Part shown: piece after piece, positions 6,253 to 51,157 of the stretch
How the letters are laid out: each line of letters opens with the position of its first letter
Position numbering within the stretch: position 1 is the first letter of the stretch
Assembly: GCA_040882845.1 (NCBI GenBank)
Contig: JBBEAM010000001.1
Location: forward strand, 48,142 to 112,141
Reading direction: 5' to 3'
Source of the DNA: Rhodovibrionaceae bacterium
Lineage (GTDB): Bacteria; Pseudomonadota; Alphaproteobacteria; Kiloniellales; DSM-21159
Length of the DNA: 64,000 nt
Translations under genes and position numbers: made by a program
Notes under the pieces: generated by a model
Databases searched by the model: none
What the model was told of the DNA's origin: nothing
The model's input: only the letters and a program-made list of their open reading frames with translations

Positions 6253-6277
6253 AAAAGCCCGGGCGCGAGGCCCGGGC
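6251..6277 (-). terminator. rho-independent terminator candidate for a minus-strand transcript; the hairpin alone also follows the plus-strand MFS gene
   Basis: 8-bp GC stem gcccgggc (6257-6264), loop gcgag, stem gcccgggc (6270-6277). The A6 tract at 6251-6256 reads as a T6 tail on the minus strand. Confidence 0.55.
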
Positions 6278-6353
6278 GAAGAGTGAGAGAGGACAGGGCA
6301 GGCGGCACCGGGGCGCGGCCTCCTGGAGGCAGGTCCCGACCCGAATTAGGGGA

Positions 6354-6569
6354 TTAGCACTCGGCGCGGGACCGGGGATGGCTGAGACGGGCTTCGCCCC
6401 AGCCGCAAAGCAAGCGCCGGACAGCCTGGCCGGCATCGCGCAGGGCGCTGCGCAGCGCTTCGCGCTGCAGCCTACGGCCGCGTTCGACATTGCGGCGCAG
6501 CTCGAGGTCGCCGAGCGCGGCAGAGGAGTCGAAGGAGGCGGTTCGGGTGAAGTTCGAGAGACGGTCCAT
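6354..6569 (-). CDS. hypothetical small protein (71 aa), divergent from the LysR gene
   Basis: ATG preceded by aaagggaaagaatc (Shine-Dalgarno-like). The hairpin plus T-tract at 6251-6277 lies downstream on the same strand. No recognisable family motif. Confidence 0.35.
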   Translation of the reverse strand: MDRLSNFTRTASFDSSAALGDLELRRNVERGRRLQREALRSALRDAGQAVRRLLCGWGEARLSHPRSRAEC

Positions 6570-6723
6570 GATTCTTTCCCTTTCTGCGCAGCTGCCCCGG
6601 CTTAGGAGGCTATTTCCGGGGTTCTGCGCGTGAGTCGAATTTAGATTGTTCCCGAAAACAAAATAATGCAGGATGATTGCAAATCATTTGTGCGCCTAAA
6701 GAACGAATAGAGAGAGCCAGGAA

Positions 6724-7644
6724 ATGGACAACATCAGCGAGATGGAAGTCTTCGTGCGCGTCGTGCAGTCGGAGTCCTTTTCCGCCGCGGCGCGGGCGCT
6801 GAATCTGTCGCCGTCGGCAGTCAGCAAGCAGGTCGGCCGGCTCGAGGATCGCCTCGGCGCGCGGCTGCTCAACCGCACCACGCGGCAGCTTTCCCTGACC
6901 GAGGTCGGGGCCGCCTTCTATGCCCGCGCCGAGCGGATCATCGCCGACGTCACCGAGGCGGAGCAGGCCGTCTCCCATCTTGAGGGCTCGGCGCGCGGCA
7001 CCCTGAAACTGAACGCGCCGACCGCCTTCGGGCGGCTGCATATCGCGCCGCTGATCGCCGGCTATCTGGAAGCCTATCCCGAGGTGCGCATCGACATGGG
7101 GCTCAGCGACCGCTTCGTCGATGTGGTCGAGGAGGGGATCGACCTGGCGATCCGGATCGGCGAGCTTTCGGATTCCAGCCTGATCGCGCGCAAGCTCTCG
7201 CCGAACCGCCGCCTCGCCGTAGCCTCGCCGGCCTACATCAAGCGCCAGGGCGCACCCGCCGCCCCGGCCGAGCTGGCGAGCCACAACTGCCTGGTCTACA
7301 CCTATCGGGCGCAGCGCCACGACTGGCCCTTCGAGGGCCCCCAGGGGCTGGAGACGGTGCGGGTGACCGGCAATCTGGAGACCAACTCGCCGGAGATCCT
7401 CAAGGTCAACATCGTCAACGGGGTGGGCATCGGCCTGCTGCCGCTATGGCTGATCGGCGACGACCTGCGCGCCGGCCGGCTGGTGCAGATCATGCCGGGT
7501 TATCACGCGCCCGACAGCGCGATCTACGCCCTCTATCCGCACAGCCGCCACCTCTCGCCCAAGGTGCGCAGCTTCGTCGACTACCTGGCCGCCAACCTGA
7601 AAGGGCTGGTCGAGCAGCCGGAGGAAGCCAAGATCAGTGCCTGA
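6724..7644 (+). CDS. LysR family transcriptional regulator
   Basis: N-terminal HTH block [56 protein letters not shown] is the canonical LysR signature. 306 aa, as expected for HTH plus substrate-binding domain. Confidence 0.92.
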
Positions 7645-9211
7645 AGTGGCGTAACCCGGTGAAGACCATGGCGAGCCCGGCCTCGTTGGCCGCGGCGATC
7701 ACCTCCTCGTCGCGCATCGACCCGCCCGGCTGAATCACCGCCTTGGCGCCGGCCTCGACCGCGGCCAGCAGGCCGTCGGCGAAGGGGAAGAAGGCGTCGG
7801 AGGCGACCACCGAGCCCTGCGCCGCCTCGGGACCGCCGGTCTCCTTGGCTTTCAGCGCGGCGATCCGCGCCGAATCCACCCGGCTCATCTGCCCGGCGCC
7901 GATGCCGACCGTGCGGCCTTGCTTGGCATAGACGATGGCGTTGGACTTGACGTGCTTGGCGACCCGGAAGGCGAAGATCAGATCGGCCCACTGCTGATCG
8001 TCGGGCGCCCGCTCGGTCACCACCTTCAGGTCCGCGCGCGCGACCCGGCCGCTGTCCCGGCTCTGCAGCAGCAGGCCGCCGGCCAGGGACTTGACCGCCA
8101 TGCCGCCCGCCGCCGGATCGGGCAGGCCGCCGGTCAGCAGCAGCCGCAGGTTCTTCTTGCCAGCCAGCACCTCAAGGGCGGAAGCGTCGGCGTCCGGGGC
8201 GATCACCACCTCGGCGAAGAGCTCGGCGATCTGGGCGGCGGTGGCGGCGTCGAGCGTCGTGTTGGCGGCGATGATACCGCCGAAGGCGCTGACCGGGTCG
8301 CAGGCCAGGGCCCGCTCGTAGGCATCGCTCAGCGTGGCGCCCAGGGCCACGCCGCAGGGGTTGGCGTGCTTGACGATGGCGATCGCCGGGGCCTCGCCGG
8401 GGTCGAACTCGGCGGCCAGTTCGAAGGCCGCATCGGTGTCGTTGAAGTTGTTGTAGGACAGCTCCTTGCCCTGGATCTGCCGCGCCGTGGCGACGCCGGG
8501 CCGCTGCTCCGCGGTGCGGTAGAAGGCCGCCTGCTGGTGCGGGTTCTCACCGTAGCGCAGGGACTGCGCGCGCTCCGCCGCCAGGGTGAAGCTGGCGGGG
8601 AAGGCTTCGCCCTCCTCGCTGGCCATCCAGCCGGCGATGGCGGCATCGTAGGAAGCGGTATGGGCATAGGCCTTGGCGGCAAGGCGGCGGCGCAGGGCGA
8701 GACCGGTCTTGCCGTCGTTTTCCTGCATCTCCCGCATCACCGCACCGTAGTCTTCCGGCGAGGTGACGATGGCGACGAAGACGTGGTTCTTGGCCGCCGC
8801 GCGGACCATGGCCGGGCCGCCGATGTCGATGTTCTCGACGCAGGTCTCGCGGTCTGCGCCGGAGGCCAGGGTCTCGCGGAAGGGATAGAGATTGACCGCC
8901 ACCAGATCGATCCCGGCGATACCATGGTCGGCCATGGCGGCGCGGTGGCTCTCGTCGTCGCGGCGCGCCAGGATGCCGCCGTGGATCGCCGGGTGCAGGG
9001 TCTTGACCCGGCCGTCCATGATCTCGGGAAAGCCGGTCGCCTCGGCGACCTCGGTGACCGCGACTCCGGCCTCTCTCAAGGCCTTGGCGGAGCCGCCGGT
9101 GGACAGAATCGCGACGCCGCGTCCGGCGAGGAAGCGGCCGAACTCGACGAGGCCGGTCTTGTCGGACACGGAAAGCAGGGCGCGGGCGATGGGTAGATTT
9201 TCTTCGGACAT
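7634..9211 (-). CDS. purH: bifunctional AICAR formyltransferase / IMP cyclohydrolase
   Basis: 525 aa. N-terminal [20 protein letters not shown]...[15 protein letters not shown] (MGS-like domain) and C-terminal [34 protein letters not shown] are textbook PurH. Confidence 0.95.
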
Positions 9212-9296
9212 CGGGGCTCCAGAGAAGGGGGCGCTTCGGGCGCATAGAAAGCGCGGCAGCCCCCCGCGATCAAGCCGTAACTTTGCGGACGGCCGC

Positions 9297-11048
9297 TTAG
9301 CGCAGCGGCCCTTCCTTTTGCAGCGCCCACTTCACCAGAGTCTCGCCGGCCTCGTAGCTGCCGCGCAGCACGACCTGCTGGCTGCGCCGCTGTTCGCCGG
9401 CGCTGCCGAGATAGAGCGAATCCTCCAGATCGATCTCCGCGCCCTTGACCTTCAGCCGCCAGCCGCCGCCCTTGGGCAGGCGCAGCAGCGCGGCGCTGCC
9501 GTCCTGCAGCAGATTGGCCTGGACCAGGGGATGCAGATGGAAGCGCAGCACGAAGCCGCCATCGGGCCGGGTGCCGCTCTCGGCGAAGACGTCGAGCCGC
9601 TCCTCGCCGCGCAGGTCCTCGCCGTTGGCCGCCAGGAACAGGCGCCGGTGGTACAGCAGGCCGTAGTTCGGCCGGTAGCCGTCGTGGGAGAGGTCGAGCC
9701 AGGTATTGCCCTCGCCTTCCTCGCGGCGGCAGCGCACCGTCTCCGGACGGCTCAGCAGGCCGCCGCCTGGGGCGATACCGCTGGAGTTGGTGTCGCTGGC
9801 GGTCAGGGTGGAGTGCGCCGCGGTGCCGCGCAGCAGCTGGTTGATCCGGGGGTGATGCGCCTCGGCGCCGCAGTTGACGATGAAGCGCTCGCGCCCCACC
9901 GACATCTCGAAGGACAGGGTTCCGGCATGGGCGCGGCGGTCGTAGCCCGGCGGCGGCGGCGCGCCGCTGTCGACGATCACCAGGGCGCGCCCGGCCTGCA
10001 TCCGCTGGAAGCCGCTCTGCGGCGCCGACATCCGTGGGCGGCCGCGGCCGTCGGCGCGCTGCAGCACCATGTCGATGCGCAGGTCCTCCTCTTCGCTGGA
10101 GCCGTTGAACAGCGCCAGCCCGCCGTCGCCGTGCTGAAACAGCCGCAGGGTCGGGGCCATGGCGTCGATCGCCGTGGAGAGATCGGTCGGCACCTCGACC
10201 TCGGCGGCATGCAGGGTCGCACGCAGGTCGATCAGGTCGCGCAGCACCGCGAGCTGGCGCGCCGGACTGCGCTCGACATGGCCGCCGTCGACCAGGATCT
10301 GTTTCGGCAGCTCGCGCATCAGCCGGTCGAGGCCGCGCGCCAGCCAGCGCTCGCCGCCGGGCAGGCAGGCCCCGGCGATGGTCAGGCCCTTGAGCGCGCA
10401 GATCAGGTCTGAGCCGGACAGGCCCGCCGGCAGAACGCGGTTGAGATGGCAGGCCTGCCGGCAGGCGGAGTCGATCACCCGGCGGCGGAACAGGACATCG
10501 GCGCTGGCGGCGTAGAATTCCCACTGGCCGAGCCAGTGGGACAGCCGCCGCGCCAGCACGATGGGATCCCAGGCGGGAAAGGACAGCCGCTCGTGGCTGT
10601 CGAGCCAGGAGCCGACCAGCTCGCGGGCGGTGCGCCGGGCGGTGTCGCCGCCGGCGGCGCGCAGGTCGCGCAGCCAGGAGAAGCTGTGCAGCTCCTGCAG
10701 CCATTCGCTCTCGGCCTCCGCCGGGTTCCAGATCGGTGCCGGGTTCATCAGCGTCTGGCCGCGCAGCGCGAAACAGCCGCCGGCGATGGCGCTGCCCTGG
10801 CCGGCCTGGCCTGGCCAGGGGTCGGGCGGCGTGGTGTTGGGCGCGGCGGCGTTGCTGCCCGTCAGGCTGGAGCAGTAGGGCGGCAGCAGGAAGACCGGCT
10901 GTTTCAGCAGGTAGAAGACACGGCTGGAAAGCTGCTCCGGCGGCAGCCGCCGCAGACTGGCGAAACGTTCGAGGAGGCCCGGACCCTGGGCAGCGGCCCT
11001 TTTCCTGCGTGGCGGAGCGGCGGTGCTGGCCACGGCTCGCTCCGCCAT
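9297..11048 (-). CDS. heparinase II/III family protein (alphaproteobacterial type)
   Basis: 583 aa. [12 protein letters not shown] and [10 protein letters not shown] blocks match the heparinase II/III-like family as I recall. The start ATG shares one base with the rpe stop (TGATG at 11046-11050). The rpe-to-purH position is the usual one in alphaproteobacteria. Confidence 0.75.
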
Positions 11049-14193: not shown

Positions 14194-15528
14194 TTGAAAG
14201 TCAGCGAATTAGGCGGCGCCGTCTTCTCCGTCCTCTGGGACGAGATCAGCGCGGTCCGCACGGCTCTGTGGTTCCGGCCGACGGCCTTCTGCCTGCTCGC
14301 CATCCTTCTGGCGTTGCTCGTCGCCGCGGCGGACGACCTGCTGCCGAAGGCAGCGCTGTCCTGGCTGCCGGAGGTCGAGAAGCAAAGCCTGCACGACCTG
14401 TTGAGCCTGCTGACCCAGGGCATGCTGACCGTCTCCACGGTGACGCTGTCGGTGCTGATGCTGGTGCTCAATCTCGCCGCCGGCCAGGCCTCGCCGCGCG
14501 CGGTGCCGGAGATGATGGCCGACGAGGTGACCCAGAACGCCCTCAGCTCCTTCCTCGCGACCTTCGTCTTCTCCCTGACCGCGCTGATGCTGCTCGGGTT
14601 CGACGGAATCGAGGCGTCCGGGGTCTCGCTGACCTTCTTCTGCGCGCTGGCCTTGATCCTCAACGCGCTGCGCTATCTGGTGCAGTGGATCCATCACGTC
14701 GCCTCGGCGATGAAGATCAACCGGATTGTCAGCCGGGTGCATCGTCAGGCCCAGGAGGTGCTGTCGACCTATCTGGAGCAAGGCGAGGAAGAGGACGCGG
14801 GCGCGCCACGCAAAGGCAAAGGCAAGCCAGAGACGCTCCGCGCCAAGCAAAGCGGCTACGTGCGCGTCGTCGATGCCGGGGAACTCGGCACCTTGGCCGA
14901 GGAGCACGCGCTGGTGCTGCAGCTCGCGGTCAAGGAAGGCGATTTCGTCCACCCTCATCGCCCGCTCCTGCAGGTCTGGGGCGTCGCACTCGACGGCGAC
15001 GGGGAAGACGCCAGGGATCTGGCGGCGGCGCTGCGCCTCGCCGTGGTGGTCGACTACGAGCGCAGTCCGGAGAAGGATCCCCTGCTGGGGGTCGAGCTGC
15101 TGGCGGAGATCGCCAGCCGGGCGCTCTCCCCCGGGGTCAACGATCCCCAGACGGCGCTGGTCTGCCTCGATCACCTCGGCGGGCTGCTCGCCCAGGCGGC
15201 GGCGCTGCCGCCCGGGGATTACCCGCCGGCCTGCCCGGGGAAGGGCCGGGTGAAGCTGCTCCGCGTCGACTTCGCGGCGCTGCTGGAACGGGCGCTGCGC
15301 CCGGCGATGCGCGACGGCGCCGGCCAGGCGGAGGTGATCTGTCGGGTGATGACCGTGCTGGGCGATCTGGCGGAGACCGCGGATCCAGCCTATTACGATC
15401 TGCTTGCGGAGGAAGCGGCGCGGGCCGAGGCCTTCGGAAAGGCGGAGCTGATCCTGGAGCAGGACAGGAAGCTCCTCGCCAAGGGCGCCCAGGTGTTGCA
15501 GGAACGCATCGCGGCGCGGAAGTCTTGA
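14194..15528 (+). CDS. DUF2254-type membrane protein
   Basis: N-terminal helices (WFRPTAFCLLAILLALLV..., LLTQGMLTVSTVTLSVLMLVL) followed by a soluble C-terminal half. I prefer the TTG start at 14194, preceded by aagggag, over the track start at 14128, which lies only 25 nt from the divergent htpX start. Confidence 0.65.
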   Translation: MKVSELGGAVFSVLWDEISAVRTALWFRPTAFCLLAILLALLVAAADDLLPKAALSWLPEVEKQSLHDLLSLLTQGMLTVSTVTLSVLMLVLNLAAGQASPRAVPEMMADEVTQNALSSFLATFVFSLTALMLLGFDGIEASGVSLTFFCALALILNALRYLVQWIHHVASAMKINRIVSRVHRQAQEVLSTYLEQGEEEDAGAPRKGKGKPETLRAKQSGYVRVVDAGELGTLAEEHALVLQLAVKEGDFVHPHRPLLQVWGVALDGDGEDARDLAAALRLAVVVDYERSPEKDPLLGVELLAEIASRALSPGVNDPQTALVCLDHLGGLLAQAAALPPGDYPPACPGKGRVKLLRVDFAALLERALRPAMRDGAGQAEVICRVMTVLGDLAETADPAYYDLLAEEAARAEAFGKAELILEQDRKLLAKGAQVLQERIAARKS

Positions 15529-15559
15529 GCCCGGCGGCGGCGCGCGCCATATTCGGATC

Positions 15560-15808
15560 ATGAGCCTGGAGTTCAAGAGCCGCCGGCCCGCGCCGGCAAA
15601 GCCCGCCGCCAAGGCCCCTCAGCCCTCCGCCGCCGCGCGGAAGGAGGAGGCCGCGCGCCAGCGCGCCGCCGCCCACGCCGGCCAGGCGCTGAAGGACGCC
15701 CAGGCCGCCAAGCAGGCGCAGCGGGAAAAGGAGATCGGCGGGCCCGAGGGGCCGGAGCCGACCCGCTACGGCGACTGGGAACGCAAGGGCATCTGCTACG
15801 ACTTCTAG
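15560..15808 (+). CDS. DUF1674 (SDHAF4-like) small protein
   Basis: 82 aa ending in PEPTRYGDWERKGICYDF, the characteristic DUF1674 C-terminus. Confidence 0.85.
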   Translation: MSLEFKSRRPAPAKPAAKAPQPSAAARKEEAARQRAAAHAGQALKDAQAAKQAQREKEIGGPEGPEPTRYGDWERKGICYDF

Positions 15809-15848
15809 CGTCTTGACGCTTTTCGCAGGCTGCGGCTGACTGCCGGGT

Positions 15849-17057
15849 ATGAACCGCCTGGAAGCCCTCTCCGAAAGCATCGACCAGGTCGCGCTGCGCG
15901 CCTATCGCCTGAAGCGGGTGCAGGAGCGGCTGCGGCAGGAAGACTGCGCTGCGGCGGTGCTGTTCGACCCGATCAACATCCGCTACGCCACCGGCAGCCG
16001 CAACATGGCGGTTTGGACCCTGCACAACCATGTCCGCTACGCCTTCGTGCCTGCCGAGGGCCTGCCGGTGCTGTTCGAGTTCGGCGCCGGCCGCCTGGCG
16101 ACTCCGGCCGAGGCGCTGGAGACCGTCGGCGAGGTCCGCCCGCCGCGCGGCTGGACCTATTTCTATAGCGGCGACAAGAAGCCCGAGCATGTCCAGCTCT
16201 GGGCCGCCGAGCTGGCCGGGCTGCTGCGCGAGACCGGCGGCGGCAACCGCCGCGTCGCCTTCGACCATCTCGACCCCCTCGGCCTCCATGCCCTGCAGGC
16301 GCAGCAGGTCACGGTCACCGACGGCGAAGCGCTGATGGAACGCGCGCGGCTGATCAAGTCGGCCGAGGAGATCGCCTGCATCAAGCTGGCGATTGCTGTC
16401 GCCGAGCTCGGCATGGCGCGGATGCGGACGGCGCTGCGCCCCGGACTCAGCGAGAACGCGCTGTGGTCGATCCTGCACCAGACCAACATCGAGCACGACG
16501 GCGAGTGGATCGAGACCCGGCTGCTGTCCTCGGGTCCGCGCACCAATCCCTGGATGCAGGAGTCGAGTCCGCGGGCGATCGAGGCCGGCGATCTGGTCGC
16601 CTTCGACACCGACATGATCGGGCCGAACGGCTACTGCGCCGATATCTCGCGAACCTACCTCTGCGGCGGCGGCCCGGCCTCGCCGGAGCAGAAGGCGCTC
16701 TATGCCGCCTCCGCCGAGCAGCTGGCGCACAACTTCGAACAGCTCAAACCGGGCCGCAGCTTCCGCGAGGTGGTGGAGTCCGAATGGAGCTTCCCGCAGC
16801 GCTACCTGCACTCCCGCTACGGCTTCGCCCACGGCGTCGGGATGGCCGACGAGTTTCCCTTCCTGCCCAACCGTGCCGTCATCGACCGCCTGTCGAATCC
16901 CGACGATATCGTCGAGCCGGGCATGGTCTTTTCGATCGAGAGCTACATCGGCGAGGTCGGCGGCAAGGAGGGGGTGAAGCTGGAGGACCAGCTGCTGATC
17001 ACCGAGTCCGGGCCGGAGCTGCTGTCGCACTTCCCCCTGGAGGATTCTCTCCGCTAG
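15849..17057 (+). CDS. M24 family metallopeptidase-fold protein (creatinase/prolidase fold; N-terminus reminiscent of DddP)
   Basis: 402 aa. N-terminal creatinase-like domain (VLFDPINIRYATGSRNMAVWTLHN) and C-terminal pita-bread domain with metal-ligand style blocks (LVAFDTDMIGPNGYCADISRTY, HGVGM, SIESYIG, VKLEDQLLIT). Confidence 0.8.
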   Translation: MNRLEALSESIDQVALRAYRLKRVQERLRQEDCAAAVLFDPINIRYATGSRNMAVWTLHNHVRYAFVPAEGLPVLFEFGAGRLATPAEALETVGEVRPPRGWTYFYSGDKKPEHVQLWAAELAGLLRETGGGNRRVAFDHLDPLGLHALQAQQVTVTDGEALMERARLIKSAEEIACIKLAIAVAELGMARMRTALRPGLSENALWSILHQTNIEHDGEWIETRLLSSGPRTNPWMQESSPRAIEAGDLVAFDTDMIGPNGYCADISRTYLCGGGPASPEQKALYAASAEQLAHNFEQLKPGRSFREVVESEWSFPQRYLHSRYGFAHGVGMADEFPFLPNRAVIDRLSNPDDIVEPGMVFSIESYIGEVGGKEGVKLEDQLLITESGPELLSHFPLEDSLR

Positions 17058-41150: not shown

Positions 41151-43346
41151 ATGCCGCTGCTGGAACATTCACGCCTCGAGCGTTCGCGCGGCGCCACGCT
41201 GCTCAGCGCCAGGCCGGTGGTGCGCCTGCAAGGCCGCCTGACCGACGCAGCGGGCCTGGCAAGGGCCTGGCCGGAGCTGACCGCCCGGATCGAGGCGGCG
41301 ATCGCCGCCGTCGGGCTGCAGGATCTGCAGCTCCAGGCCGGGGAATCCAGCGCCGCCGAGCGTGCCCGGGAGGCCTTCGCCCAGCTCCCGCCCCGCCTCG
41401 CGCCGGAGCAGGCCTGCGCGGAAATCGGCCGGCTGCTCGCCGCCGCCGCCGCGGCGCTGATGGCCGCGGCGCGCGCGCCCCAGGGCGCCTGGGGCGCGGT
41501 CAAGGCCTCGCCGCCGGAGTTCCTCGCCTACTGGGACGACTGGATGGACGGCGTCGGCCAAGCCGCCGGGCGGGCGGCGCAGGCGCTGCTTGAGGCTGCC
41601 TACGCCCGGCCCGGGGAAGATCTGGAGGAGACGGCGAAAACCGCTCTGGCGGAGGTGCGCGGCAAGCGGGTCGACGGCTTCATCTACACCAGCGTGCGGG
41701 CCGCCGAAAGCCGCGGCATCCCCTGGCGCCTGCTCGCCCCCGGCAGCCTGCTGGTCGCCTATGGCCAGGGCCGGCGGCAGCGCTGGATCCGCGCCACGCT
41801 GAGCGACGTCCAGAGCTACGCCAGCGTGTACATCACCCTGCGCAAGGACCTGACCAGCAAGCTGCTGGCGCGGGCCGGCTTTCCGGTGCCCGAGCACCGC
41901 CTGGTCAAGAGCCGGGCGGAGGCCGCCGCCGCCGCCGAGGCGCTGGACTATCCCCTGGTGGTCAAGCCCTTGAACGGCTCGCGAGCGGAGCACGTCTCGC
42001 TCTGGCTCGACAGCCCGGAGCAGGTGGCGGAGGCTTATGCGCTCTGCGGGCCCGAGGGCACCCCGGTCCTGGTCGAATGCCAGGCTCTGGGCGAGCCCTA
42101 CCGCGTCACCGTGTTCGGCGGCCGGGCCGTCGCCGCCGGGCGGCACTCGATCCCCGCGGTGACCGGCGACGGCGTCAGCAGCATCGCCGCGCTGATCGCC
42201 GCCTGGGACGCCCGGGCGAAGCTACCGGTGGCCGATAGCTACGCCCGTTACTACCAGATCGACCGGGAGTTCTACCGCGACCAGATGACTCAGCGGCTCG
42301 AGGCGCAGGGTCTGACCCTGGAGTCCGTTCCCGAGCCGGGCCGCGAGGTGCTGCTCGGCTACCTGCCCCAGCGCGCCGGCGGCGGGCTCTACAACGACGT
42401 TACCGACCGGATCCACCCCGGCCTGATGCGGATGGCCGAGGACATTGCCACGGTGCTCGGCAGTCCCACGCTCGGCGTCGACATCATCACCCCCGACGTC
42501 GCCAAGGCGCCGGGCGAGGCGCCGCTGGCGATCAACGAGGTCAATTCCTCGCCCAGCGCCCGGGCGCACGAGCAGACCGACCAGCCCCGGCGGGTCGCTG
42601 CGCAGGCCCTGGCGGCCGTCTTTCCGGGCGAAGCGAGGAGCGTGCTGGGCGGCGATGCCGGGCGCATTCCGCTCGCCCTGTTCTACGATTTTCCCGATCC
42701 GGCGGTGCTGGACAGCCTGGAAGCCCTGCTTCAAGCGGCCGGCTGGATGCCCGGGGTCGCCGATCCGCACACGGCGCGGATCGCTGGCTACGCCCTGCAT
42801 CCCGCCGACGGCAAGCGCAGCCACCCCGGGGCGGCGGTGTTGCGCGACCGCCGCGCGGATGCCGGTATTTTTGGCGTCGTCCTCAACGATCTCAGCCGCC
42901 GCGGTCTGCCCAGCGATCACGCCGATGTCGCTGCCTTCGCGCCGGGGACGCTCGAACGGCGGGACCAACTGCTGCGCCCGGCTGCCAGCCTGCTGGCCGG
43001 CTTGCCCGGGAGCGTGCTGCTGACAGCGCCGGGAGAGGCGCCGGACTGGCTCCGCGCCGCGGCGCGACACCGCCGCTGGATCGCCGTGGCGGCGCCGGAG
43101 GCGGGAGAGACTGCGCCACCGGGGGAGGGCGAGCTGCTGCGCTGCGAGGCCGGCGCCGAGGGCCAGCGGCGGGCGGTGCTGTGCGGCGCGGGAAGCCGCG
43201 ATCTGCTCTGCGACCGGCTCGAAGAGGAGAATCCGGCGGCGCAGCTCTGGGCGCTGGCGGCGCTGCTCGGCCTCGGCTTTTCGCCCGGTGAGATCCGCCG
43301 TCTGGCGCTGCGCGCTTGGGAGGCCCGCCATGGCGTCCCGGCCTGA
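41151..43346 (+). CDS. cyanophycin synthetase-like protein A (N domain + ATP-grasp + P-loop-less Mur-ligase-like tail; CphA2-style)
   Basis: 731 aa. RAAESRGIPWRLLAPGSLLVAYGQGRRQRWIRATLSDVQSYASVYITLRKDLTSKLL parallels the CphA N/G junction. ATP-grasp blocks YPLVVKPLNGSRAEHV, VLVECQ, YRVTVFGG, AINEVNSSP. The tail begins RIPLALFYDFPDPAV, where CphA has RIPxxxVTGTNGKTT. Confidence 0.75.
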   Translation: MPLLEHSRLERSRGATLLSARPVVRLQGRLTDAAGLARAWPELTARIEAAIAAVGLQDLQLQAGESSAAERAREAFAQLPPRLAPEQACAEIGRLLAAAAAALMAAARAPQGAWGAVKASPPEFLAYWDDWMDGVGQAAGRAAQALLEAAYARPGEDLEETAKTALAEVRGKRVDGFIYTSVRAAESRGIPWRLLAPGSLLVAYGQGRRQRWIRATLSDVQSYASVYITLRKDLTSKLLARAGFPVPEHRLVKSRAEAAAAAEALDYPLVVKPLNGSRAEHVSLWLDSPEQVAEAYALCGPEGTPVLVECQALGEPYRVTVFGGRAVAAGRHSIPAVTGDGVSSIAALIAAWDARAKLPVADSYARYYQIDREFYRDQMTQRLEAQGLTLESVPEPGREVLLGYLPQRAGGGLYNDVTDRIHPGLMRMAEDIATVLGSPTLGVDIITPDVAKAPGEAPLAINEVNSSPSARAHEQTDQPRRVAAQALAAVFPGEARSVLGGDAGRIPLALFYDFPDPAVLDSLEALLQAAGWMPGVADPHTARIAGYALHPADGKRSHPGAAVLRDRRADAGIFGVVLNDLSRRGLPSDHADVAAFAPGTLERRDQLLRPAASLLAGLPGSVLLTAPGEAPDWLRAAARHRRWIAVAAPEAGETAPPGEGELLRCEAGAEGQRRAVLCGAGSRDLLCDRLEEENPAAQLWALAALLGLGFSPGEIRRLALRAWEARHGVPA

Positions 43347-45483
43347 AGCCGAGATCAAGAGCTTCCGTGGCGCCAACCTGCTGGTTGCCCGGCCCTCGAC
43401 GATGCTGGAAATGGCGGTCCCCGATTGGCCGGGACTGCAGGACGCTGCGCGGCGAAGGAAGCTGGCCGAGGCCGTGAGAACGGCCTTGAGGCTCGAGGAC
43501 AGCCAAGGGCTCTGGGCCGGTCTGGCAAGGACCGCCGAGGCCGGTCCCGCCGAATTCCTCGCGCCGCTGCTCGCCCTGACGGCATTGGGGCTGCAGCGGC
43601 GGGTTGGCCGGCGGGTAACGCGGCACCGTGCCATCGTCGTCGCTGGCGGCAGGAAGCTCGTCGCGGTCTGGGAACACTTCACCGACTTCGAGGGCAGGGC
43701 CGCCGGCCGCCAGGCCCTCGATCTGGTCCAGGATTTCGCCGGCGCGGACAGCAGCCCGGCCAAGCGCGGCGCGCGCGCCGAAAAGGCGGTGGCGGCGCTG
43801 CGCGAGGAGCTGCCCGATCCCGTCGCCGACGTGATCATGGAGGGGCTGCAGGCGCGCGGCCTGCCCTGGCGGATCTTCGACAATCAGTGGCCGGCTTTCG
43901 AGGCCGGCACCGGCTGCAAGCGTCAGCGTCTGATGACTTCGATGCCCGACAGCCAGGGTCACCTCGACCGCATGGTCTTCCGCAACAAATTCCTGGCCGG
44001 GGCGATCCTGCGCGAGGCCGGGCTGCCGATGCCGCGGCACGAGCAGGTACGCAGCGCCGCGCAGGCGCTCGCCGCGGCCGGGCGGATCGGTTACCCGGTG
44101 GTGGTCAAGCCGGTCGATTCCGGCCGTTCGAAAGGCGTCTCGGTCAATCTGCGGGATGCCTCGGCCATTCCCGAAGCCTACGCCTTCGCCCGTCAGCACG
44201 GCTCCGCCGTGCTGGTGGAACGCTTCATCCCCGGTCTTCCTTACCGCATCCTGATCCTGGAGGGGGAGGTGATCGCCGCGGCGCTGCGCGGCGTCCCTGG
44301 CGTCACCGGCGACGGCGCGCTCAGCGTAGGCCAGCTGATCGAACGCGAGAACGCCCGCCGCGAGGAGGAGAACCTCGGCCTCAGCCAGCCGCTGCCGAGG
44401 ATCAACATCGCCGCCTTCGCCGAGGAATGCGACCGCCGCCTGGCCGAGCAGGACCTGACCCTCGACGGCGTTCCCGAGGCGGGGCAGGAGGTCTGGCTGG
44501 CGCATCATGCGCAGCGCGGGCGCGGCGGCCTCAATGTCGACGTCACGGCGGAGCTGCACCCCGACCACTTCGACCTGGCGGCGCAGATCTCCGCGATCAT
44601 GCGCTGCCCGATGATCGGCATCGACTTTATCACCCAGGACATCCGCCGTTCTTTCCGGGAGGTGCCTTGCGGAATCAACGAGGTCAACATCGAGCCGGCG
44701 CTGAACCTGCATATGCGCATGACGCGTACGCCGCGCGACGTCGTGGCGCCGCTGCTCGGCAAGATCTTCCCCCGGGGCGACGACGGGCGGATTCCCATGC
44801 TGACGGTCTATGGCCCGGCGTCGGCACCGCTCGGCCTGCTGCGGCGCGCCTATGCCGCCACGGGGCGGCGTCTCGGTTTCGCGGCGGGCGAAGGCGGCAC
44901 CTGGATAGGTTCGGAGCCGCTTGCCCTCGAGGGAGGGATCGACCGCAGGATCGAAAGCCTGCTGTACGATCCCCGCGTCGAGGCGCTGCTGCTCGAGCTC
45001 TGTCTCGAGGATTTCAGACGCGGCTTCGCCTTCGATCGCAGCGAGGCGACGCTGTATCTGCACGGCCCCGGCGAGGGCGACGGCAACCGCGCCGCCTGCG
45101 TCAAGCTGCTGCGGGAGACGACTCACGGGCTCGAGATCCTGCCGCTGGAGCAGCTCGAGAGCTGGCAGGCGGAATTCGGTGCCCTGCGCGCTCCGGCGGT
45201 GCTGTTCAGCGAGGCCCTGCGGCCCGAGGGCCTCTCCGCAGCGCTGTCCGGGGGGCATAGGGTCGTCGGCACCCGCGAAGGCGCAGCGGGCTCCCTGGGC
45301 GTCTTCGCCGGCGGCCTTTTCGATCTGCTGGCCGCTCTCGGCGCCGGGGCCAGCGCGGAACTACGGCGCGAAGCGCTGCTCGCCGCCGCCGGGCTGCTCG
45401 GCCTCGGCCTCTCGATCCAGGAAACGCGCCGCTGCCTGAACGCGGCGCTGGAGGAACAGGCTCAGGAGAGGGAGGCGGAATGA
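43330..45483 (+). CDS. cyanophycin synthetase-like protein B (paralog of A; same architecture)
   Basis: 717 aa from the ATG at 43330, which lies 17 nt inside gene A. N-terminal IKSFRGANLLVARPSTMLEMAV resembles the CphA N-terminus. ATP-grasp blocks YPVVVKPVDSGRSKGV, VLVERFIPG, YRILILEGE, GINEVNIEP. Tail begins RIPMLTVYGPASAPLG (no GKT P-loop). Confidence 0.75.
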   Translation: MASRPEAEIKSFRGANLLVARPSTMLEMAVPDWPGLQDAARRRKLAEAVRTALRLEDSQGLWAGLARTAEAGPAEFLAPLLALTALGLQRRVGRRVTRHRAIVVAGGRKLVAVWEHFTDFEGRAAGRQALDLVQDFAGADSSPAKRGARAEKAVAALREELPDPVADVIMEGLQARGLPWRIFDNQWPAFEAGTGCKRQRLMTSMPDSQGHLDRMVFRNKFLAGAILREAGLPMPRHEQVRSAAQALAAAGRIGYPVVVKPVDSGRSKGVSVNLRDASAIPEAYAFARQHGSAVLVERFIPGLPYRILILEGEVIAAALRGVPGVTGDGALSVGQLIERENARREEENLGLSQPLPRINIAAFAEECDRRLAEQDLTLDGVPEAGQEVWLAHHAQRGRGGLNVDVTAELHPDHFDLAAQISAIMRCPMIGIDFITQDIRRSFREVPCGINEVNIEPALNLHMRMTRTPRDVVAPLLGKIFPRGDDGRIPMLTVYGPASAPLGLLRRAYAATGRRLGFAAGEGGTWIGSEPLALEGGIDRRIESLLYDPRVEALLLELCLEDFRRGFAFDRSEATLYLHGPGEGDGNRAACVKLLRETTHGLEILPLEQLESWQAEFGALRAPAVLFSEALRPEGLSAALSGGHRVVGTREGAAGSLGVFAGGLFDLLAALGAGASAELRREALLAAAGLLGLGLSIQETRRCLNAALEEQAQEREAE

Positions 45484-46349
45484 AGACTTGGGTTCTCGCC
45501 AACCCGCCGCCGGTTTCCGAGGACACCGCCTATCTGCTGGGGCGGGTGACCTCGCGCAGCTCGGAAGTCGTGGTCACCCAGGTCGGGGAGCTGGACCGGG
45601 AAGTGCCGCCTCCGCCGGTGGGGGTCGAGGTCATCCTCAACCGCAGCTTCAACACCCAGGCGGAATTCCTACTGGGGCTGGATGCGCTGGCCGAGCGGTG
45701 CGGCGTACGCGTCTGCAATCCCGGCGCGGCGACGCTCGCCGCCTGCGACAAGCGCAGCTACATCGCCGACTATGCCGACGTGATTCCCGAAACCCGGATT
45801 GCCGGTAGCCGCGCGGCGCTGCGGCGCGTCTGGGAGGAACTGGGCGGCGATATCGTGATCAAGGAGCCCTTCGGCAAGCACGGCAAACAGGTCGAGCGCC
45901 TGCGCGCGCCCGCCGACCTGCCGGCGGCGGAGGCGCTGCTGGCCCAATCGCGCTGCGGCGAACTCGTGGCGCAGCGCTTCTGCAGCGGTTTTCTTGCCGG
46001 CGACAAGCGGGTGATCGTGCAGCGCCGGCCGGAAGGCGGCTACGCCGCCCTGGCCTGGTTTCAGCGCGTGCCGCGCCCCGGTGGCTGGAAAAGCAACGTC
46101 AGCGCGGGGGGCAGCGTCGTGGACTGCGATCTCTCGGCCGAGGAGATGACCCTGGCCGAAGCTCTGGCGGCGCGCAGCGGACTCGACTACGTCGGGCTGG
46201 ACCTCGCCCGACACGAGAGGCGTACGCTGTTGATCGAGACCAACAGCTACACCGGCGGCCACGTGAACTTCGATATCGTGCGGCGGGAACGTACGGGAGA
46301 CATCTTCGCGGAGCTCATCGCCCATCTGGCCAGCCAGGGCCGCTCGTAG
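45480..46349 (+). CDS. GshB/RimK-type ATP-grasp ligase
   Basis: 289 aa. ATG overlaps the gene B stop (ATGA). CDKRSYI, IVIKEPFGKHGKQV, VAQRF, GDKRVIVQRR, GGWKSNVSAGGS, GLDL and LIETNSYTGG fit the glutathione synthetase/RimK ATP-grasp pattern. Confidence 0.75.
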   Translation: MKTWVLANPPPVSEDTAYLLGRVTSRSSEVVVTQVGELDREVPPPPVGVEVILNRSFNTQAEFLLGLDALAERCGVRVCNPGAATLAACDKRSYIADYADVIPETRIAGSRAALRRVWEELGGDIVIKEPFGKHGKQVERLRAPADLPAAEALLAQSRCGELVAQRFCSGFLAGDKRVIVQRRPEGGYAALAWFQRVPRPGGWKSNVSAGGSVVDCDLSAEEMTLAEALAARSGLDYVGLDLARHERRTLLIETNSYTGGHVNFDIVRRERTGDIFAELIAHLASQGRS

Positions 46350-46623
46350 CGCTCAGCGGCGGTTTGCCGCCGGCGGGGGACCTGCTGCGGCGCGTCAGAT
46401 GCAGCGCGATCCAGCCGCGCAGCCGGCGGAACCATAGAATCATCGGCATGCGGATCTGCTGGCTGCCGCTGAACATCACCACGACGCCGAGCGGCAGCAT
46501 CCAGATGCCGAGCACCGGCAGGAAACTGAAAATCCCGCCCAGGATCAGAAAGCAGCCGATGATGAAGCGGATCGCCAGCGGCCAGGTCAGCAGCCGGCGG
46601 AGATAGGGGTTGGGTCTTTGCAT
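46315..46623 (-). CDS. small membrane protein (102 aa; possibly PGPGW-type)
   Basis: Two adjacent hydrophobic helices (LAIRFIIGCFLILGGIFSFLPVLGIWMLPLGVVVMF). Its 3' end overlaps the 3' end of the ATP-grasp gene by 35 nt, convergently. Family call is tentative. Confidence 0.45.
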   Translation of the reverse strand: MQRPNPYLRRLLTWPLAIRFIIGCFLILGGIFSFLPVLGIWMLPLGVVVMFSGSQQIRMPMILWFRRLRGWIALHLTRRSRSPAGGKPPLSATSGPGWPDGR

Positions 46624-46779: not shown

Positions 46780-47466
46780 ATGGCCTTGAAGCGGCACTTC
46801 ACGCGTGACGATCCCTACAGTCCGGCGGAGGAGATCGCCCATGCCGTGACCCATGGAATCGGCGCCGCGCTCTCCGTGGCGGCGCTGGCCGCGCTGCTGG
46901 CCCTGGCGCTGGAGCGCGGCAGCGCGACGGCGATCCTCGCGGTGGCGCTCTACGGCGGGGCGCTGATCGTCCTCTTCCTGGCGTCGACCCTGCATCACTC
47001 CCTGCCCCAGGGCCGCGCCAAGGACGCCTTCCTGGTGGCCGATCACTGCGCCATCTATCTGCTGATCGCCGGCACCTATTCCCCCTTCGCGCTGTTGGTG
47101 CTGCCGCCGGAGCTCGGCTGGATGGTTTTCGCCGCGGTTTGGGGATTGGCGGGTCTGGGGATCCTGCTCAAGCTGACCGATTCCTATCTGCTCGCCCTGC
47201 GCTGGGAGGCCGCGGTTTCCATCGTGCTTTACCTGGCCATGGGCTGGCTCGGCCTGCTGGTCGCCGGTCCGGAGCTGGTCGAGGGCCTGAGCGGCCACGG
47301 GCTGTTCTGGCTGCTCGCCGGCGGCCTGCTCTACACCCTGGGGGTCGGCTTCTACGTCTGGCGCCGCCTGCGCTTCAATCACGCGATCTGGCACTGCACC
47401 GTGCTGCTCGCCGCCGTCGCCCATTTCATTGCCGTCTACGGCTTTGTGCTGCCGGCCAAGCTGTGA
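46780..47466 (+). CDS. hemolysin III / PAQR family membrane protein
   Basis: 228 aa, seven TM helices. EEIAHAVTHGIGA at the N-terminus, STLHHS, DHCAIYLLIAGTYSPF, and the C-terminal HAIWHCTVLLAAVAHF. Confidence 0.88.
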   Translation: MALKRHFTRDDPYSPAEEIAHAVTHGIGAALSVAALAALLALALERGSATAILAVALYGGALIVLFLASTLHHSLPQGRAKDAFLVADHCAIYLLIAGTYSPFALLVLPPELGWMVFAAVWGLAGLGILLKLTDSYLLALRWEAAVSIVLYLAMGWLGLLVAGPELVEGLSGHGLFWLLAGGLLYTLGVGFYVWRRLRFNHAIWHCTVLLAAVAHFIAVYGFVLPAKL

Positions 47467-47553
47467 GCCTTCTTCGGCGGCGCCAAAAGGCATGACTCTC
47501 CACACAAATCCACAGTAGGCTGAGCGAGATCACGCCGGGTGTTGGGGCGAAAG

Positions 47554-49407
47554 ATGATCAGGCTCGTTCTTATTGGCGCCATCCTGGCGCTTTCGAGTTG
47601 TCTTGCCGCAGCCGCCCTGGCCGCGGAGGGCGACAGCGCGGTTTACGTCGAACTGCGGCCGGAGGGCGCGGACGAGGACGCGGCGCGCGAGCGCTGGAAG
47701 CTCTACAGCGCGAGCTACGCCCTGGTCATCGGCATCGACGACTACAGCGCCGGCTGGCCGCGCCTGTCCAACGCCGTCGGCGATGCCGAGGCGGTGGCCG
47801 CGGCGCTGCGGGACCGCGGTTTTGAGGTGACCACGCTGTACAATCCCGGCGGGGACAGGCTGCGCGGCGAGCTGCGCAGCTTCTTCGCGCTCAAGGGCAG
47901 AGATCCCGAGGCGCGCCTGTTCCTCTGGTTCGCCGGCCACGGCTACAGCGAGTTCGACGAGGGCTATCTGGTGCCCGCCGACGCGCCGGACCCTGACGAT
48001 CCCGAGTTCCTGCTGCGCGCCCTGCATCTTGGCGACGTCGGGTCGATGGTCCGCATCGCGCGCTCCAAGCATGTCTTCGCGGTCTTCGACTCCTGCTTCG
48101 CCGGGACCATTTTCAACGCCAGCCGGGCGCGCCCGCCGGCCGCCATCACCCGCGCCGTGAGCGCCCCGGTGCGCCAATTCCTGACCTCCGGCGATGCCGA
48201 TCAGCAGGTCTCCGACGACGGCGCCTTCCGGCGGCTGTTCCTCAAGGCCATCGGCGGCGAGGAGAATGCCGACGCCAACGACGACGGCTATCTCACGGGC
48301 ACCGAACTGAGCCTTTTCCTCGAGGATCGCGTGGTCAATCTCACCCAGTCCCTGCAGACGCCGCGCAGCGGCAAGTTGCGCGACCAGCGCTTCGATCAGG
48401 GCGATTTCGTGTTCCTGCTGCCGCAGAGCGCGGAATCGCAGGTCGCTGCCGTCCAGCCGCAAGGCGGGTCCGGGACCGGCACCCGCGCGCTTCCGGCTGC
48501 CGATCCCGAGCTGGCCGTGGAACTGGCCTTCTGGGACGCGATCAAGGCAAGCGACAGCCCGGACGACTACACGGCCTATCTCACGGCCTATCCCGACGGG
48601 CGTTTTGCCGTGCTTGCCCAATCCCGCAGGGCGCGGCTGGAATCGGGAGCCGCCGCGCGCGAAGCCGAGCACGAACGCCTGGAAGCCGAGGCGCAGGCGC
48701 GCAGCGCCGACGAACAGCATCATCGGGCCGAGGACGAACAGCACCATCAGGCCGAAGCGGCGCGGGACGCACAGCTCGCCGCGTTGCCGCCTGCCGCGCC
48801 CCAAGTCAATCCCGAGGCGGATCCCGCTGCCCAGGAAGAAGAGGCGCTCGGCCTGACCCGCGGCGATCGCCGGGAGCTGCAGGCCGCCCTGACCGCGCTC
48901 GGCTTCGACACGCGCGGGATCGACGGGGTGTTCGGGCCCGGTACGCGCACCGCCATCCGCGGCTATCAGGCGGCCAAAGGGGCCGAGCGAAGCGGCTATC
49001 TGACCGCATCCCTGGCCGGCAGCCTGCGGGCCGAAGCGCCGCGGGCGCCGGCAGGCGAAACCCAGACGGCCGCCCGGCCGGCGCAAGCGGCGATCTCGAA
49101 AAGCGCGGCCGGAGACTACCTGCGCGCCAACGCCAGCGCCATGAAGCAGGAGCTGATGGAATACAACCAGCAGCACCGCGTGATTCACGGCAGCTACGGC
49201 GGCACCGCCGAGCGCCTCGACATCGTCTCCTGGCGGGTCGAGCAGGTGACCGGCGACGAAGCCGTGGTCGCCGTGGCCTACCGCGAGCCGATCGTCGTCC
49301 TGGCCGGCAACAGCGGGACGCAGCGCTTCCTGCTGAAGTGGGACGGGTCCGGATTTTCCTTCGTCGGCCATGAAAACGGCGGAGCCATGAGGCGCACCGG
49401 CGGCTAG
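47554..49407 (+). CDS. secreted caspase-family (peptidase C14) protein with a peptidoglycan-binding domain, paralog 1
   Basis: Signal peptide. YALVIGIDDY...LSNAVGDAEAV. Catalytic-dyad contexts WFAGHGY and VFDSCFAG. PG_binding_1-like LQAALTALGFDTRGIDGVFGPGTRTAIRGYQ. I prefer the ATG at 47554 over the GTG at 47539. Confidence 0.82.
   Translation: MIRLVLIGAILALSSCLAAAALAAEGDSAVYVELRPEGADEDAARERWKLYSASYALVIGIDDYSAGWPRLSNAVGDAEAVAAALRDRGFEVTTLYNPGGDRLRGELRSFFALKGRDPEARLFLWFAGHGYSEFDEGYLVPADAPDPDDPEFLLRALHLGDVGSMVRIARSKHVFAVFDSCFAGTIFNASRARPPAAITRAVSAPVRQFLTSGDADQQVSDDGAFRRLFLKAIGGEENADANDDGYLTGTELSLFLEDRVVNLTQSLQTPRSGKLRDQRFDQGDFVFLLPQSAESQVAAVQPQGGSGTGTRALPAADPELAVELAFWDAIKASDSPDDYTAYLTAYPDGRFAVLAQSRRARLESGAAAREAEHERLEAEAQARSADEQHHRAEDEQHHQAEAARDAQLAALPPAAPQVNPEADPAAQEEEALGLTRGDRRELQAALTALGFDTRGIDGVFGPGTRTAIRGYQAAKGAERSGYLTASLAGSLRAEAPRAPAGETQTAARPAQAAISKSAAGDYLRANASAMKQELMEYNQQHRVIHGSYGGTAERLDIVSWRVEQVTGDEAVVAVAYREPIVVLAGNSGTQRFLLKWDGSGFSFVGHENGGAMRRTGG
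48709..48756 (+). repeat. 24-nt in-frame tandem repeat x2 (DEQHHRAE / DEQHHQAE) within caspase paralog 1
   Basis: gacgaacagcatcatcgggccgag followed by gacgaacagcaccatcaggccgaa. Lies in a charged His/Glu/Gln-rich segment that has no counterpart in paralog 2. Confidence 0.8.
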
Positions 49408-49447
49408 CGGAAGCGCCGAGAAAAGGAGGGGAAGGAGGAGCAGCACT

Positions 49448-51157
49448 ATGCGATATCGCGGTCTGGCCGCCCTCTGGCTCGGCGCCGCCATAATCCTCCA
49501 GGCCGCGCCGCTCGACGCGGCCGAGACGGACAGCGCCGTCTATGTCGAACTGCGCGCGGAAGGCGCCGGCGCCGAGGGCGCGCGCGAGCGCTGGAAGCTC
49601 TACGGCGCCAGCCACGCCCTGGTCATCGGCATCGACGACTACAGCGCCGGCTGGCCGCGCTTGTCCAATGCCGTCAGGGATGCCGAAGCCGTGGCGGCGG
49701 GCCTGAAAAGCCAGGGCTTCGAGGTCGAACTGCTGCGCAATCCAGGCTCCCAGGACCTGCGCACGGCGCTGCGCGCCTTCTTCGCGCGCAAGGGCGCCGA
49801 TCCCGAGGCGCGGCTGTTCCTCTGGTATGCCGGTCACGGACACACCGAGTACGGCGAGGGCTATCTGGTGCCCTCCGACGCCCCCCTGCCCGGCGAGCCG
49901 GACTTCGCCTTCCAGGCGCTGCACCTGGGCGACGTCGGCGCGATGGTGCGCATCGCGCGCGCCAAGCACGTCTTCGCGGTGTTCGACTCCTGCTTCGCGG
50001 GCACCATCTTCAACGCCAGCCGCGCGCGCCCGCCGGCCGCCATCACCCGTGCGGTCAATGAACCGGTGCGCCAGTTCCTGACCTCCGGGGACGCCGACCA
50101 GGAAGTCTCCGACGACGGCACCTTCCGCGACCTCTTCCTGCGTGCGCTCACCGGCAAGGAGGACGCCGACGCCAACGACGACGGCTATCTCACCGGGACC
50201 GAACTGAGCCTTTTCCTCGAGGATCGCGTGATCAACCTGACCCAGTCCCTGCAGACGCCGCGCAGCGGCAAGCTGCGCGACCGCCGTTTCGACCAGGGCG
50301 ACTTCGTCTTTCTACTGCCTGGTGCGGCAGAGCGGCAGGTCGCCTCGGCGGCGGGGGGAGCGGCCCCGCCTTCCGGAACGCGCGCGCTGCCCCAAGTCGA
50401 TCCGGCATTGGCGGTCGAGCTCGCGTTCTGGCAGTCGATCCAGGCTTCGAGCAGCGCCGCCGATTACAAGGCCTATCTGGCGAGCTATCCGGAGGGGCAG
50501 TTCAGGACGCTCGCCGAGGCGCGGCTGGCCGACTTGACGGCGGCATCGGAGGACCCGCAGCTTGCCGTTTTGCCGCCTGATCCCGCGGCCCAGGTCGAAG
50601 CCGCGCTCGATTTGAGCCACGGCGAGAGGGAAGAGGTTCAGCGGGCGTTGACCGCGCTCGGCTACGATACCAAAGGGGTCGACGGCGCTTTCGGCCCCGG
50701 GACGCGGGGTGCGATCGGCGCCTATCAAGCCGCCAAGGGACTGGAACCGAACGGCTACCTGACGGCCTCGCTGTTCGGCGCGCTGATGGCCGAGACGCCG
50801 GAGACCGCGCCTCAAGCGCCGGCTGCCGCCGCGCTGCCGTCTCCTGCGGCGATCACGGCCGAGGCCTTCGATGCCTATCTCGAGAGCAATCGAAGGCGCA
50901 TGAAGGGGGGACTCGTTCGCTACAACGAGCGTCACAAGGCGATCGTCCGGGACAACGGCAGTCCCGATCTTCGCCCGCTGCGCTTCCCCACCTGGGTGCT
51001 GACCGAAGCCGACGGCGACGAGGCGCTGGTTGCCGTCGGTTACCTCGACCCCGATGCCGGGACCACTGGCAAGCAGCGGTTCCTGTTCAGATGGACCGGT
51101 ACCGAGTTCGAGGTTATCGGCCATGAGGAGAATGGAGAAATCAAGCGCGCCCGATAG
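49448..51157 (+). CDS. secreted caspase-family (peptidase C14) protein with a peptidoglycan-binding domain, paralog 2
   Basis: Strong SD (aaggaggggaaggagg). Signal peptide. HALVIGIDDY, WYAGHGH, VFDSCFAG. PG-binding block VQRALTALGYDTKGVDGAFGPGTRGAIGAYQ. Long stretches of near-identical DNA shared with paralog 1. Confidence 0.85.
   Translation: MRYRGLAALWLGAAIILQAAPLDAAETDSAVYVELRAEGAGAEGARERWKLYGASHALVIGIDDYSAGWPRLSNAVRDAEAVAAGLKSQGFEVELLRNPGSQDLRTALRAFFARKGADPEARLFLWYAGHGHTEYGEGYLVPSDAPLPGEPDFAFQALHLGDVGAMVRIARAKHVFAVFDSCFAGTIFNASRARPPAAITRAVNEPVRQFLTSGDADQEVSDDGTFRDLFLRALTGKEDADANDDGYLTGTELSLFLEDRVINLTQSLQTPRSGKLRDRRFDQGDFVFLLPGAAERQVASAAGGAAPPSGTRALPQVDPALAVELAFWQSIQASSSAADYKAYLASYPEGQFRTLAEARLADLTAASEDPQLAVLPPDPAAQVEAALDLSHGEREEVQRALTALGYDTKGVDGAFGPGTRGAIGAYQAAKGLEPNGYLTASLFGALMAETPETAPQAPAAAALPSPAAITAEAFDAYLESNRRRMKGGLVRYNERHKAIVRDNGSPDLRPLRFPTWVLTEADGDEALVAVGYLDPDAGTTGKQRFLFRWTGTEFEVIGHEENGEIKRAR

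Follow-up and report, generated by a model that had tools for sequence, protein, structure and literature searches.

What is the C-terminal tail of a cyanophycin synthetase-like protein good for if it no longer contains the nucleotide-binding P-loop of a Mur ligase? This question is posed by gene A of a Rhodovibrionaceae bacterium, found in a 64,000-nucleotide stretch of contig JBBEAM010000001.1 (positions 48,142 to 112,141; this whole stretch is called the window below). Gene A is an uninterrupted open reading frame (ORF) at 41151..43346 on the + strand. It encodes a CphA-family protein of 731 amino acids (aa), in which an N domain and an ATP-grasp G domain precede a degenerate tail corresponding to Mcore, the core of the CphA M domain. 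It is followed by a paralog, gene B, and a third ligase gene, gene C. Few enzymes can build long peptide polymers independently of ribosomes; cyanophycin synthetases belong to these and are of interest to biotechnology.

The tail of A has lost the Mur-ligase active site

The tail of A (aa 504-731; 42660..43343, + strand) is very probably a vestigial Mcore of the CphA M domain, folded and conserved, yet non-catalytic. In a phmmer search of the PDB, GRIPLALFYDFPDPAVLDSLEALL of A aligns opposite RVPIAALTGTNGKTTCARMLSHIL of CphA1 (7lgn, 7lgm). Here, RIPLALFYDFP-DPAVL in A takes the place of RIPIAAxTGTNGKTT in CphA1, GTNGKT being replaced by YDFP-D. The degenerate P-loop site, RIPLALFYDFPDPAVL, covers aa 505-520 of A (42663..42710, + strand) and is aligned to RVPIAALTGTNGKTTCS. 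The original prediction had pointed to the missing Gly-Lys-Thr at this position. Both the PDB alignment and all family members agree with this, and a motif table over the whole A tail revealed no Gly-Lys-Thr either at the P-loop position or elsewhere. P-loop loss is common to the 8 A-family and 5 B-family proteins that we found (8/8 and 5/5), and the position of the catalytic Lys is occupied by an Asp (D516) that is invariant across the A family.

We extended this audit to the rest of the active site, using the residue numbers and roles of TeCphA1 (PMC9427784), in whose M domain Lys499 is catalytic and T500, T522 and E558 are Mg2+ ligands. In a motif alignment, the A family has lost T522 (D or G instead), E558 is replaced by Gly, Ala or Ser, and the NxxxDH motif is deleted. 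In the multiple alignment, moreover, A and B terminate immediately before SPGR, the motif with which the C-terminal Mur subdomain begins, while full CphA1s run 148-176 residues past this end-point. Since A and B end at the boundary between Mcore and the M-domain lid (Mlid), which folds over ATP, the tail comprises a complete Mcore from which Mlid is absent. With the P-loop (K499/T500), T522, E558, NxxxDH and Mlid all lost, the A tail is unfit for an ATP-dependent ligation of the Mur type.

An ATP-dependent second ligation by the tail had already been considered unlikely, on the grounds that Gly-Lys-Thr is missing and that the ~225 residues following the junction are too short for a complete M domain. 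We count ~227 residues past GRIP and concur, with the refinement that Mcore is whole and the lid alone is missing. The predicted tail start at 42661 marks the right region, but is one base off, as the codon of residue 504 begins at 42660.

The tail retains the fold of a Mur ligase central domain

A profile built from ten A- and B-family tails recognised the M domain of CphA1 (7lgn, E=1.3e-10), with tail positions 1-185 falling on residues 466-659. Further matches were again CphA1 M domains (7lgm, 2e-10; 7lg5, 6e-8; 7wac, 5e-6), with nothing else meaningful, and the profile did not match the CphA2 M domain at E<=10. When the A tail alone was searched with phmmer against 1.84 billion representative proteins, the 5 matches were all family members and included neither Mur ligases nor CphA1. 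A single-sequence search is too weak for the tail, whereas a profile search succeeds. A similar picture emerges for the two paralogs. BLASTP of A against B produces an alignment that ends at the GRIP junction and leaves the tails unaligned; the homology of the A and B tails is visible by MAFFT and profile methods. Pfam Mur_ligase_M (PF08245) matched 0/10 tails at E<=10, and Pfam scans gave nothing relevant.

We modelled the tail alone with AlphaFold2 (AF2), which from only 10 sequences returned an alternating beta/alpha pattern with a predicted local distance difference test score (pLDDT) of 89.8 and a predicted template modelling score (pTM) of 0.90. A Foldseek comparison of this model with the PDB ranked the M domain of CphA1 first (E 2e-11, TMq 0.65-0.68), followed by the central domains of MurE, FolC, MurC, MurF and MurD (E 4e-9 to 2e-6, TMq 0.5-0.64). 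The Mur structures matched include MurE (8g6p, 4e-9; 2wtz; 1e8c), FolC (3qcz) and MurC (9s8i). The A tail therefore has the same Rossmann-like fold as the Mur ligase central domain, as the structure prediction suggested at the outset was meant to reveal, and together with the profile matches this places it among the relatives of Mur ligases. Unlike Mur ligases, it has no P-loop, no Mg2+ ligands and no N- or C-terminal Mur domain.

In the A family, conservation of the tail is intermediate between that of the N and G domains. Mean pairwise identities in the A family are 46% for the N domain, 61% for the G domain and 54% for the tail, and the corresponding values for the B family are 53%, 80% and 50%. 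Invariant positions common to both tails comprise GRIP, L..L, G..G.A, L.D.R, D...RG, W and A.LLG.G. As the tail is both conserved and confidently folded, we regard it as a structural module under selection, not as a decaying C-terminus.

Paralog B shares the truncation

Gene B (43330..45483, + strand) encodes a protein of 717 aa, identified as a sister paralog with the same N-G-Mcore architecture by its ORF, the phmmer search of the PDB and the tree described below. Its ATG at 43330 creates a 17-nt overlap with the end of A, and a Shine-Dalgarno sequence (GGGAGG) is present at 43318-43323. The overlap is identical in orthologous loci. The tail of B (44785..45480, + strand) is a second degenerate Mcore, in which GRIPMLTVYGPASAPLG aligns opposite GRIPILSVTGTNGKTTT in the phmmer search. 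According to the alignment and motif table, the B family has lost the P-loop (YGPA--SAP) and T522, NxxxDH is deleted, and of the catalytic positions only the E558 equivalent is kept. The loss of the M site is therefore a property of the A-B pair and not of A alone.

The N domains of A and B (41151-41675 and 43330-43860) differ in charge. They are acidic in the A family, with an isoelectric point (pI) of ~5.0-5.7, and basic in the B family (pI 9.4-10.7), consistently across orthologues. These opposite charges may provide complementary surfaces or different polymer contacts.

The ATP-grasp sites are intact, but their substrate loops are altered

Beyond the tail, A is clearly a member of the CphA family. 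Its residues 74-596 align to CphA1 in the PDB (7lgn, 2.7e-50; 7lgm, 1.8e-41) and it also matches CphA2 (8fxh, 2.9e-33). CphA1 outscores CphA2 for both paralogs, with 175 and 191 bits for A and B against 119 and 143 bits. Similarly, the full-length AF2 model of A (pLDDT 78) retrieves CphA1 first (4e-39) and CphA2 second (3e-31) in Foldseek. Against the NCBIfam cyanophycin synthetase model, A reaches 239 bits, whereas the cut-off is 877; the match spans profile positions 115-570 of 871. The cut-offs of the CphA1 family models (TIGR02068/NF010623; 877 and 850) are reached by neither protein (239 and 205 bits for A, 268 and 243 bits for B).

The G domain of A spans ~aa 176-500 (41676..42650, + strand), as delimited by motif alignment with residue roles taken from PMC9427784. 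The ATP-grasp set K220, K261, E300, R309, D431, E450 and N452 is kept throughout the A and B families. H267 is replaced by Arg in 6/8 A members and in B, and by Leu in the remaining A members P0011 and P0012; several proteobacterial CphA1s carry Lys or Gln at this position. Judged from these residues, the ATP-grasp site is the only credible catalytic site in each of A and B.

The substrate-binding elements of the G domain have changed. In CphA1, Asn394 in the large loop of G-omega positions the substrate Asp (PMC9427784). The loop (TANxSTGG, N394) has become LPQRxGGG in A and HHAQRGRGG in B, while its Asn and S-x-GG motif are kept in 8/8 CphA1s compared. E215, which contacts the cyanophycin primer in TeCphA1, is Tyr, His or Phe in A and Met in B. 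R458, which contacts the carboxylate of the substrate Asp, is kept in most A members and is Asn in B. With the Asp-recognition loop of CphA1 retained in neither A nor B, their substrate would not simply be free Asp, and they may thus make something other than ordinary cyanophycin. A motif alignment of the N domains did not reveal the Cx19HxxEH primer-hydrolase motif (defined in PMC9262961) in either protein.

A, B and a third ligase form a conserved cassette

Gene C (45480..46349, + strand) encodes an ATP-grasp ligase of the GshB/RimK type with 289 aa (Pfam GSH-S_ATP 2.8e-15, RimK 5e-10), whose best match in the PDB is E. coli GshB (1.7e-12). The start codon of C and the stop codon of B overlap in an ATGA, and C follows B in every related locus. 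A, B and C are translationally coupled. As A and B are both truncated with dead M sites, the operon is left with three ATP-grasp sites and no other intact catalytic site. Rfam as well as promoter and terminator scans of 39-47.5 kb gave nothing usable.

The order A-B-C and the overlapping stops and starts are kept in four other contigs, namely an alphaproteobacterial metagenome-assembled genome (MAG; L001), two metagenome contigs (L002 and L022) and a contig from TARA Oceans (L024). In the latter, every flanking gene is different from those of the other loci. This unrelated context means that the cassette, and not its neighbourhood, is the conserved unit. Its copy number varies. In L024, there are two tandem C-type ligases (14370-16134), and in L002 two A-type genes stand ahead of B (5394-9807).

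The cassette is exceedingly rare. Among 5.8 billion proteins, the A/B clade has about a dozen members; we found seven A-type and about four B-type clusters, and the source of A and B is uncultured Alphaproteobacteria. Across the 23 genomes of its family, the A-B pair is limited to the genus of the window itself, and C was not found in 300 other genomes sampled across the class. A search for related loci returned none with protein A as query and one MAG with the A3 alignment as query.

Downstream of the cassette, a small ORF of ~90-102 aa (46315-46623, - strand) converges on the 3' end of C and also occurs in L001, L002 and L022. This ORF is unlikely to belong to the module, since it is absent from the TARA cassette. 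It is followed by a gene of the HlyIII family (46780-47466), which precedes two tandem genes that each combine peptidase C14 (caspase-like) with PG_binding_1 (47539-51157, + strand) and are syntenic in L001, L002 and L022.

Truncation of CphA-like proteins has recurred in Alphaproteobacteria

We calculated a maximum-likelihood tree on the N+G region from the sampled CphA1s, A, B and other truncated proteins. It groups the A clade with the B clade as sisters (support 100/99), on long branches outside all sampled CphA1s. Five further CphA-like proteins without P-loop and lid (P0015, P0016, P0017, P0022 and P0030) each group with a different CphA1. Two of these (P0015 and P0016) stem from a sister genome, and P0017 adjoins a full CphA1 in another genus. 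Their positions next to different CphA1s indicate that truncation has occurred several times independently, each time at the same domain boundary.

Eight more such genes were identified in a 401-genome sample of the class (L025-L032). All eight are without Lys-Thr at the P-loop and terminate where Mcore ends. A C-like gene adjoins none of them, and most carry the large loop of the CphA1 type. Loci with truncated CphA-like genes include L017 (5024-7153 and 8591-10786) and L018 (5351-7453), the last directly after a full CphA1 with stop and start overlapping; the genes at L017, L018 and L025-L032 each have a different CphA1 as nearest relative. These alphaproteobacterial genes, which are uncharacterised in the literature that we searched, share the truncation point and the loss of GKT with A and B. 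Unlike A and B, they are solitary or adjoin a full CphA1, mostly have a CphA1-type loop and have no C-type ligase nearby. The truncated N-G-Mcore architecture is thus not unique; only the A/B clade, which combines altered loops with a ligase partner, is unique.

The genome of the window holds two more CphA-like genes. One is a canonical full-length CphA1 (C9:600756-603473; 701 bits) with a GTTGKTT P-loop. The other is an ORF of ~768 aa (C7:384159-386498), the M domain of which is intact (GRIPLAAITGTNGKTTT, LETARGG, NVTADHLG). Its G domain is without profile positions 232-387, which hold the ATP-grasp lid and core, so that it represents a G-dead, M-intact mirror of A and B.

Searching plasmids with tblastn yielded only cphA and ngg from non-cyanobacteria and no CphA2. 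On the Microvirga ossetica plasmid NZ_CP016620.1, a CphA-like match (355008-356465; query 113-601) reaches into the tail region. It underlies a feature annotated as 'CapA family protein', which could be a fusion or a mis-annotation.

Discussion

The closest known system to A and B is CphA2 (PDB 7TA5, 8FXH/8FXI), described as a cyanobacterial enzyme (PMC10206079). Its N and G domains are followed by a 'truncated, inactive' M domain, and dimer and hexamer contacts are made via G and M (PMC10273328). CphA2 is without the P-loop of the M domain (P-loopM) and without Mlid, and polymerises beta-Asp-Arg at the G domain only (PMC10273328, PMC9427784); the HxxEH hydrolase motif of the N domain is likewise missing (PMC9262961). 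A and B match this layout and all three absences. There are also clear differences. The M remnant of CphA2 has ~150 aa, compared with the complete Mcore of ~227 aa in A, and the A/B tail is nearer in sequence to the M domain of CphA1 than to that of CphA2. Moreover, A and B are a coupled sister pair accompanied by a GshB-like ligase, and their large loop and equivalents of E215 and R458 (the latter chiefly in B) are replaced.

CphA1 (PDB 7LGN, 7LGM, 7WAC, 7LG5) remains the best match of A and B in sequence and fold over N, G and Mcore, and has the ATP-grasp residues in common with them. It is set apart from them by their destroyed M active site, the missing Mlid, the replaced ANxSTGG and their separate, long-branched clade. 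The lower scores against CphA2, the profile miss, the longer tail, the recurrent truncation and the alphaproteobacterial source all point indirectly to convergence with CphA2. From these comparisons, A and B probably represent a CphA2-type architecture outside cyanobacteria that has arisen independently. In the literature on heteromeric, tandem or CphA-like enzymes we found only mentions in genome papers, concerning adjacent 'cphA1/cphA2' in Betaproteobacteria and two silent homologues in Cupriavidus necator.

How might the three proteins work together? By analogy with CphA2, the tail most probably packs on the ATP-grasp G domain and forms an oligomer interface, which lends support to the scaffold or oligomerisation role that the original prediction had proposed. 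Gene coupling, the origin of A and B as sisters and the opposite charges of their N domains suggest that the two act together, and they would then form a hetero-oligomeric peptide polymerase that operates with G domains only. A second ligation, either side-chain or dipeptide-forming, or a building block could be supplied in trans by C. Tentatively, we therefore picture A-B-C as a split poly(amino acid) synthetase that relies on ATP-grasp enzymes throughout. Here, an A/B hetero-oligomer would polymerise something other than free Asp into a backbone, C would replace the Mur-type domain, and the resulting polymer would be distinct from cyanophycin. In this scenario, C may act in side-chain addition or in the synthesis of building blocks, and the product may be a storage or functional polymer.

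Several observations weigh against this picture, or against a tail that is catalytically and chemically inert. The role proposed for C derives from gene order. The ATP-grasp lid loop of the A family is less Gly-rich than that of B, and its G domain is less conserved (61% vs 80%); from its sequence, A might be a weakly active or non-catalytic subunit. The B family keeps Glu at E558. Finally, the charged residues D566, R568, D580 and R584 (A numbering) are conserved in A and B tails, making a non-canonical ligand site conceivable.

This last point leads to the possibility that the tail is more than a scaffold and has been re-purposed for ligand binding or regulation, holding the primer or growing polymer or sensing an effector. 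Besides the four charged residues, the full Mcore would fit such a role, as it is kept whole by independent lineages and is not trimmed to ~150 aa as in CphA2 (PMC10273328). The same residues are, however, found in catalytic CphA1 (in the LRDP..D and RGG.R.GL blocks) and so may be structural, and polymer binding in CphA1 is assigned to the N domain (PMC9427784). We thus consider this possible, but improbable on balance.

If A and B were instead recyclers of the CphA2 type, they would polymerise beta-Asp-Arg released from the cyanophycin made by the genome's own CphA1, and their tail would serve as in CphA2. The identical architecture, in which N and G precede a shortened M domain that has neither P-loopM nor Mlid (PMC9427784), and the missing HxxEH motif (PMC9262961) agree with this, and the full-length CphA1 at C9 provides a potential source of polymer. 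Yet we consider this unlikely. No match to cyanophycinase (TIGR02069) was detected in the genome, which is 98.6% complete, leaving no obvious source of the dipeptide, although an unrecognised form is possible (PMC10206079). The replacement of the large-loop motif, E215 and, in B, R458 contrasts with the change in CphA2, which is described as subtle (PMC10273328). In addition, A and B score higher against CphA1 than against CphA2, the tail profile misses the CphA2 M domain, and the presence of two paralogs and ligase C would be left unexplained.

More doubtful still is a role of the operon in small-peptide synthesis, in which three ATP-grasp ligations in succession would yield, for example, an osmolyte or a glutathione-like tri- or tetrapeptide, and the N domain and tail would be mere evolutionary baggage. 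The G domains do also resemble N-acetylglutaminylglutamine synthetase and the ATP-grasp module of GshF (TIGR03103, 3e-31 and 6e-42), and beyond their three or four ATP-grasp genes, the loci contain no tailoring genes. For baggage, however, an N domain and Mcore that are confidently folded and 46-54% identical over deep divergence would be unexpected, and the small-molecule relatives Ngg and GshF have neither. The weakest explanation, in which the tail has lost its function and is decaying, or is an artefact of annotation or frameshift, could draw on the Pfam miss in all ten tails and the BLAST alignment that excludes them, but we reject it as highly implausible, given a frame that is open in 13 proteins, a tail identity of 50-54% within families, an AF2 pLDDT of 90 from 10 sequences and significant profile and fold matches to the CphA1 Mcore.

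To our knowledge, cyanobacterial CphA2 is the only M-dead form that has been characterised. The truncation known from CphA2 is found here in a very rare alphaproteobacterial operon of three ligases with altered substrate loops. The repeated loss of P-loop and lid in Alphaproteobacteria suggests that the Mcore remnant is structurally required and no accident of truncation. Being extremely rare, paired, and equipped with a third ligase and rewritten loops, the A/B clade is a candidate for new poly(amino acid) chemistry, and A-B-C would constitute a natural test of whether an unrelated ATP-grasp enzyme can take over the second ligation that CphA1 carries out itself.

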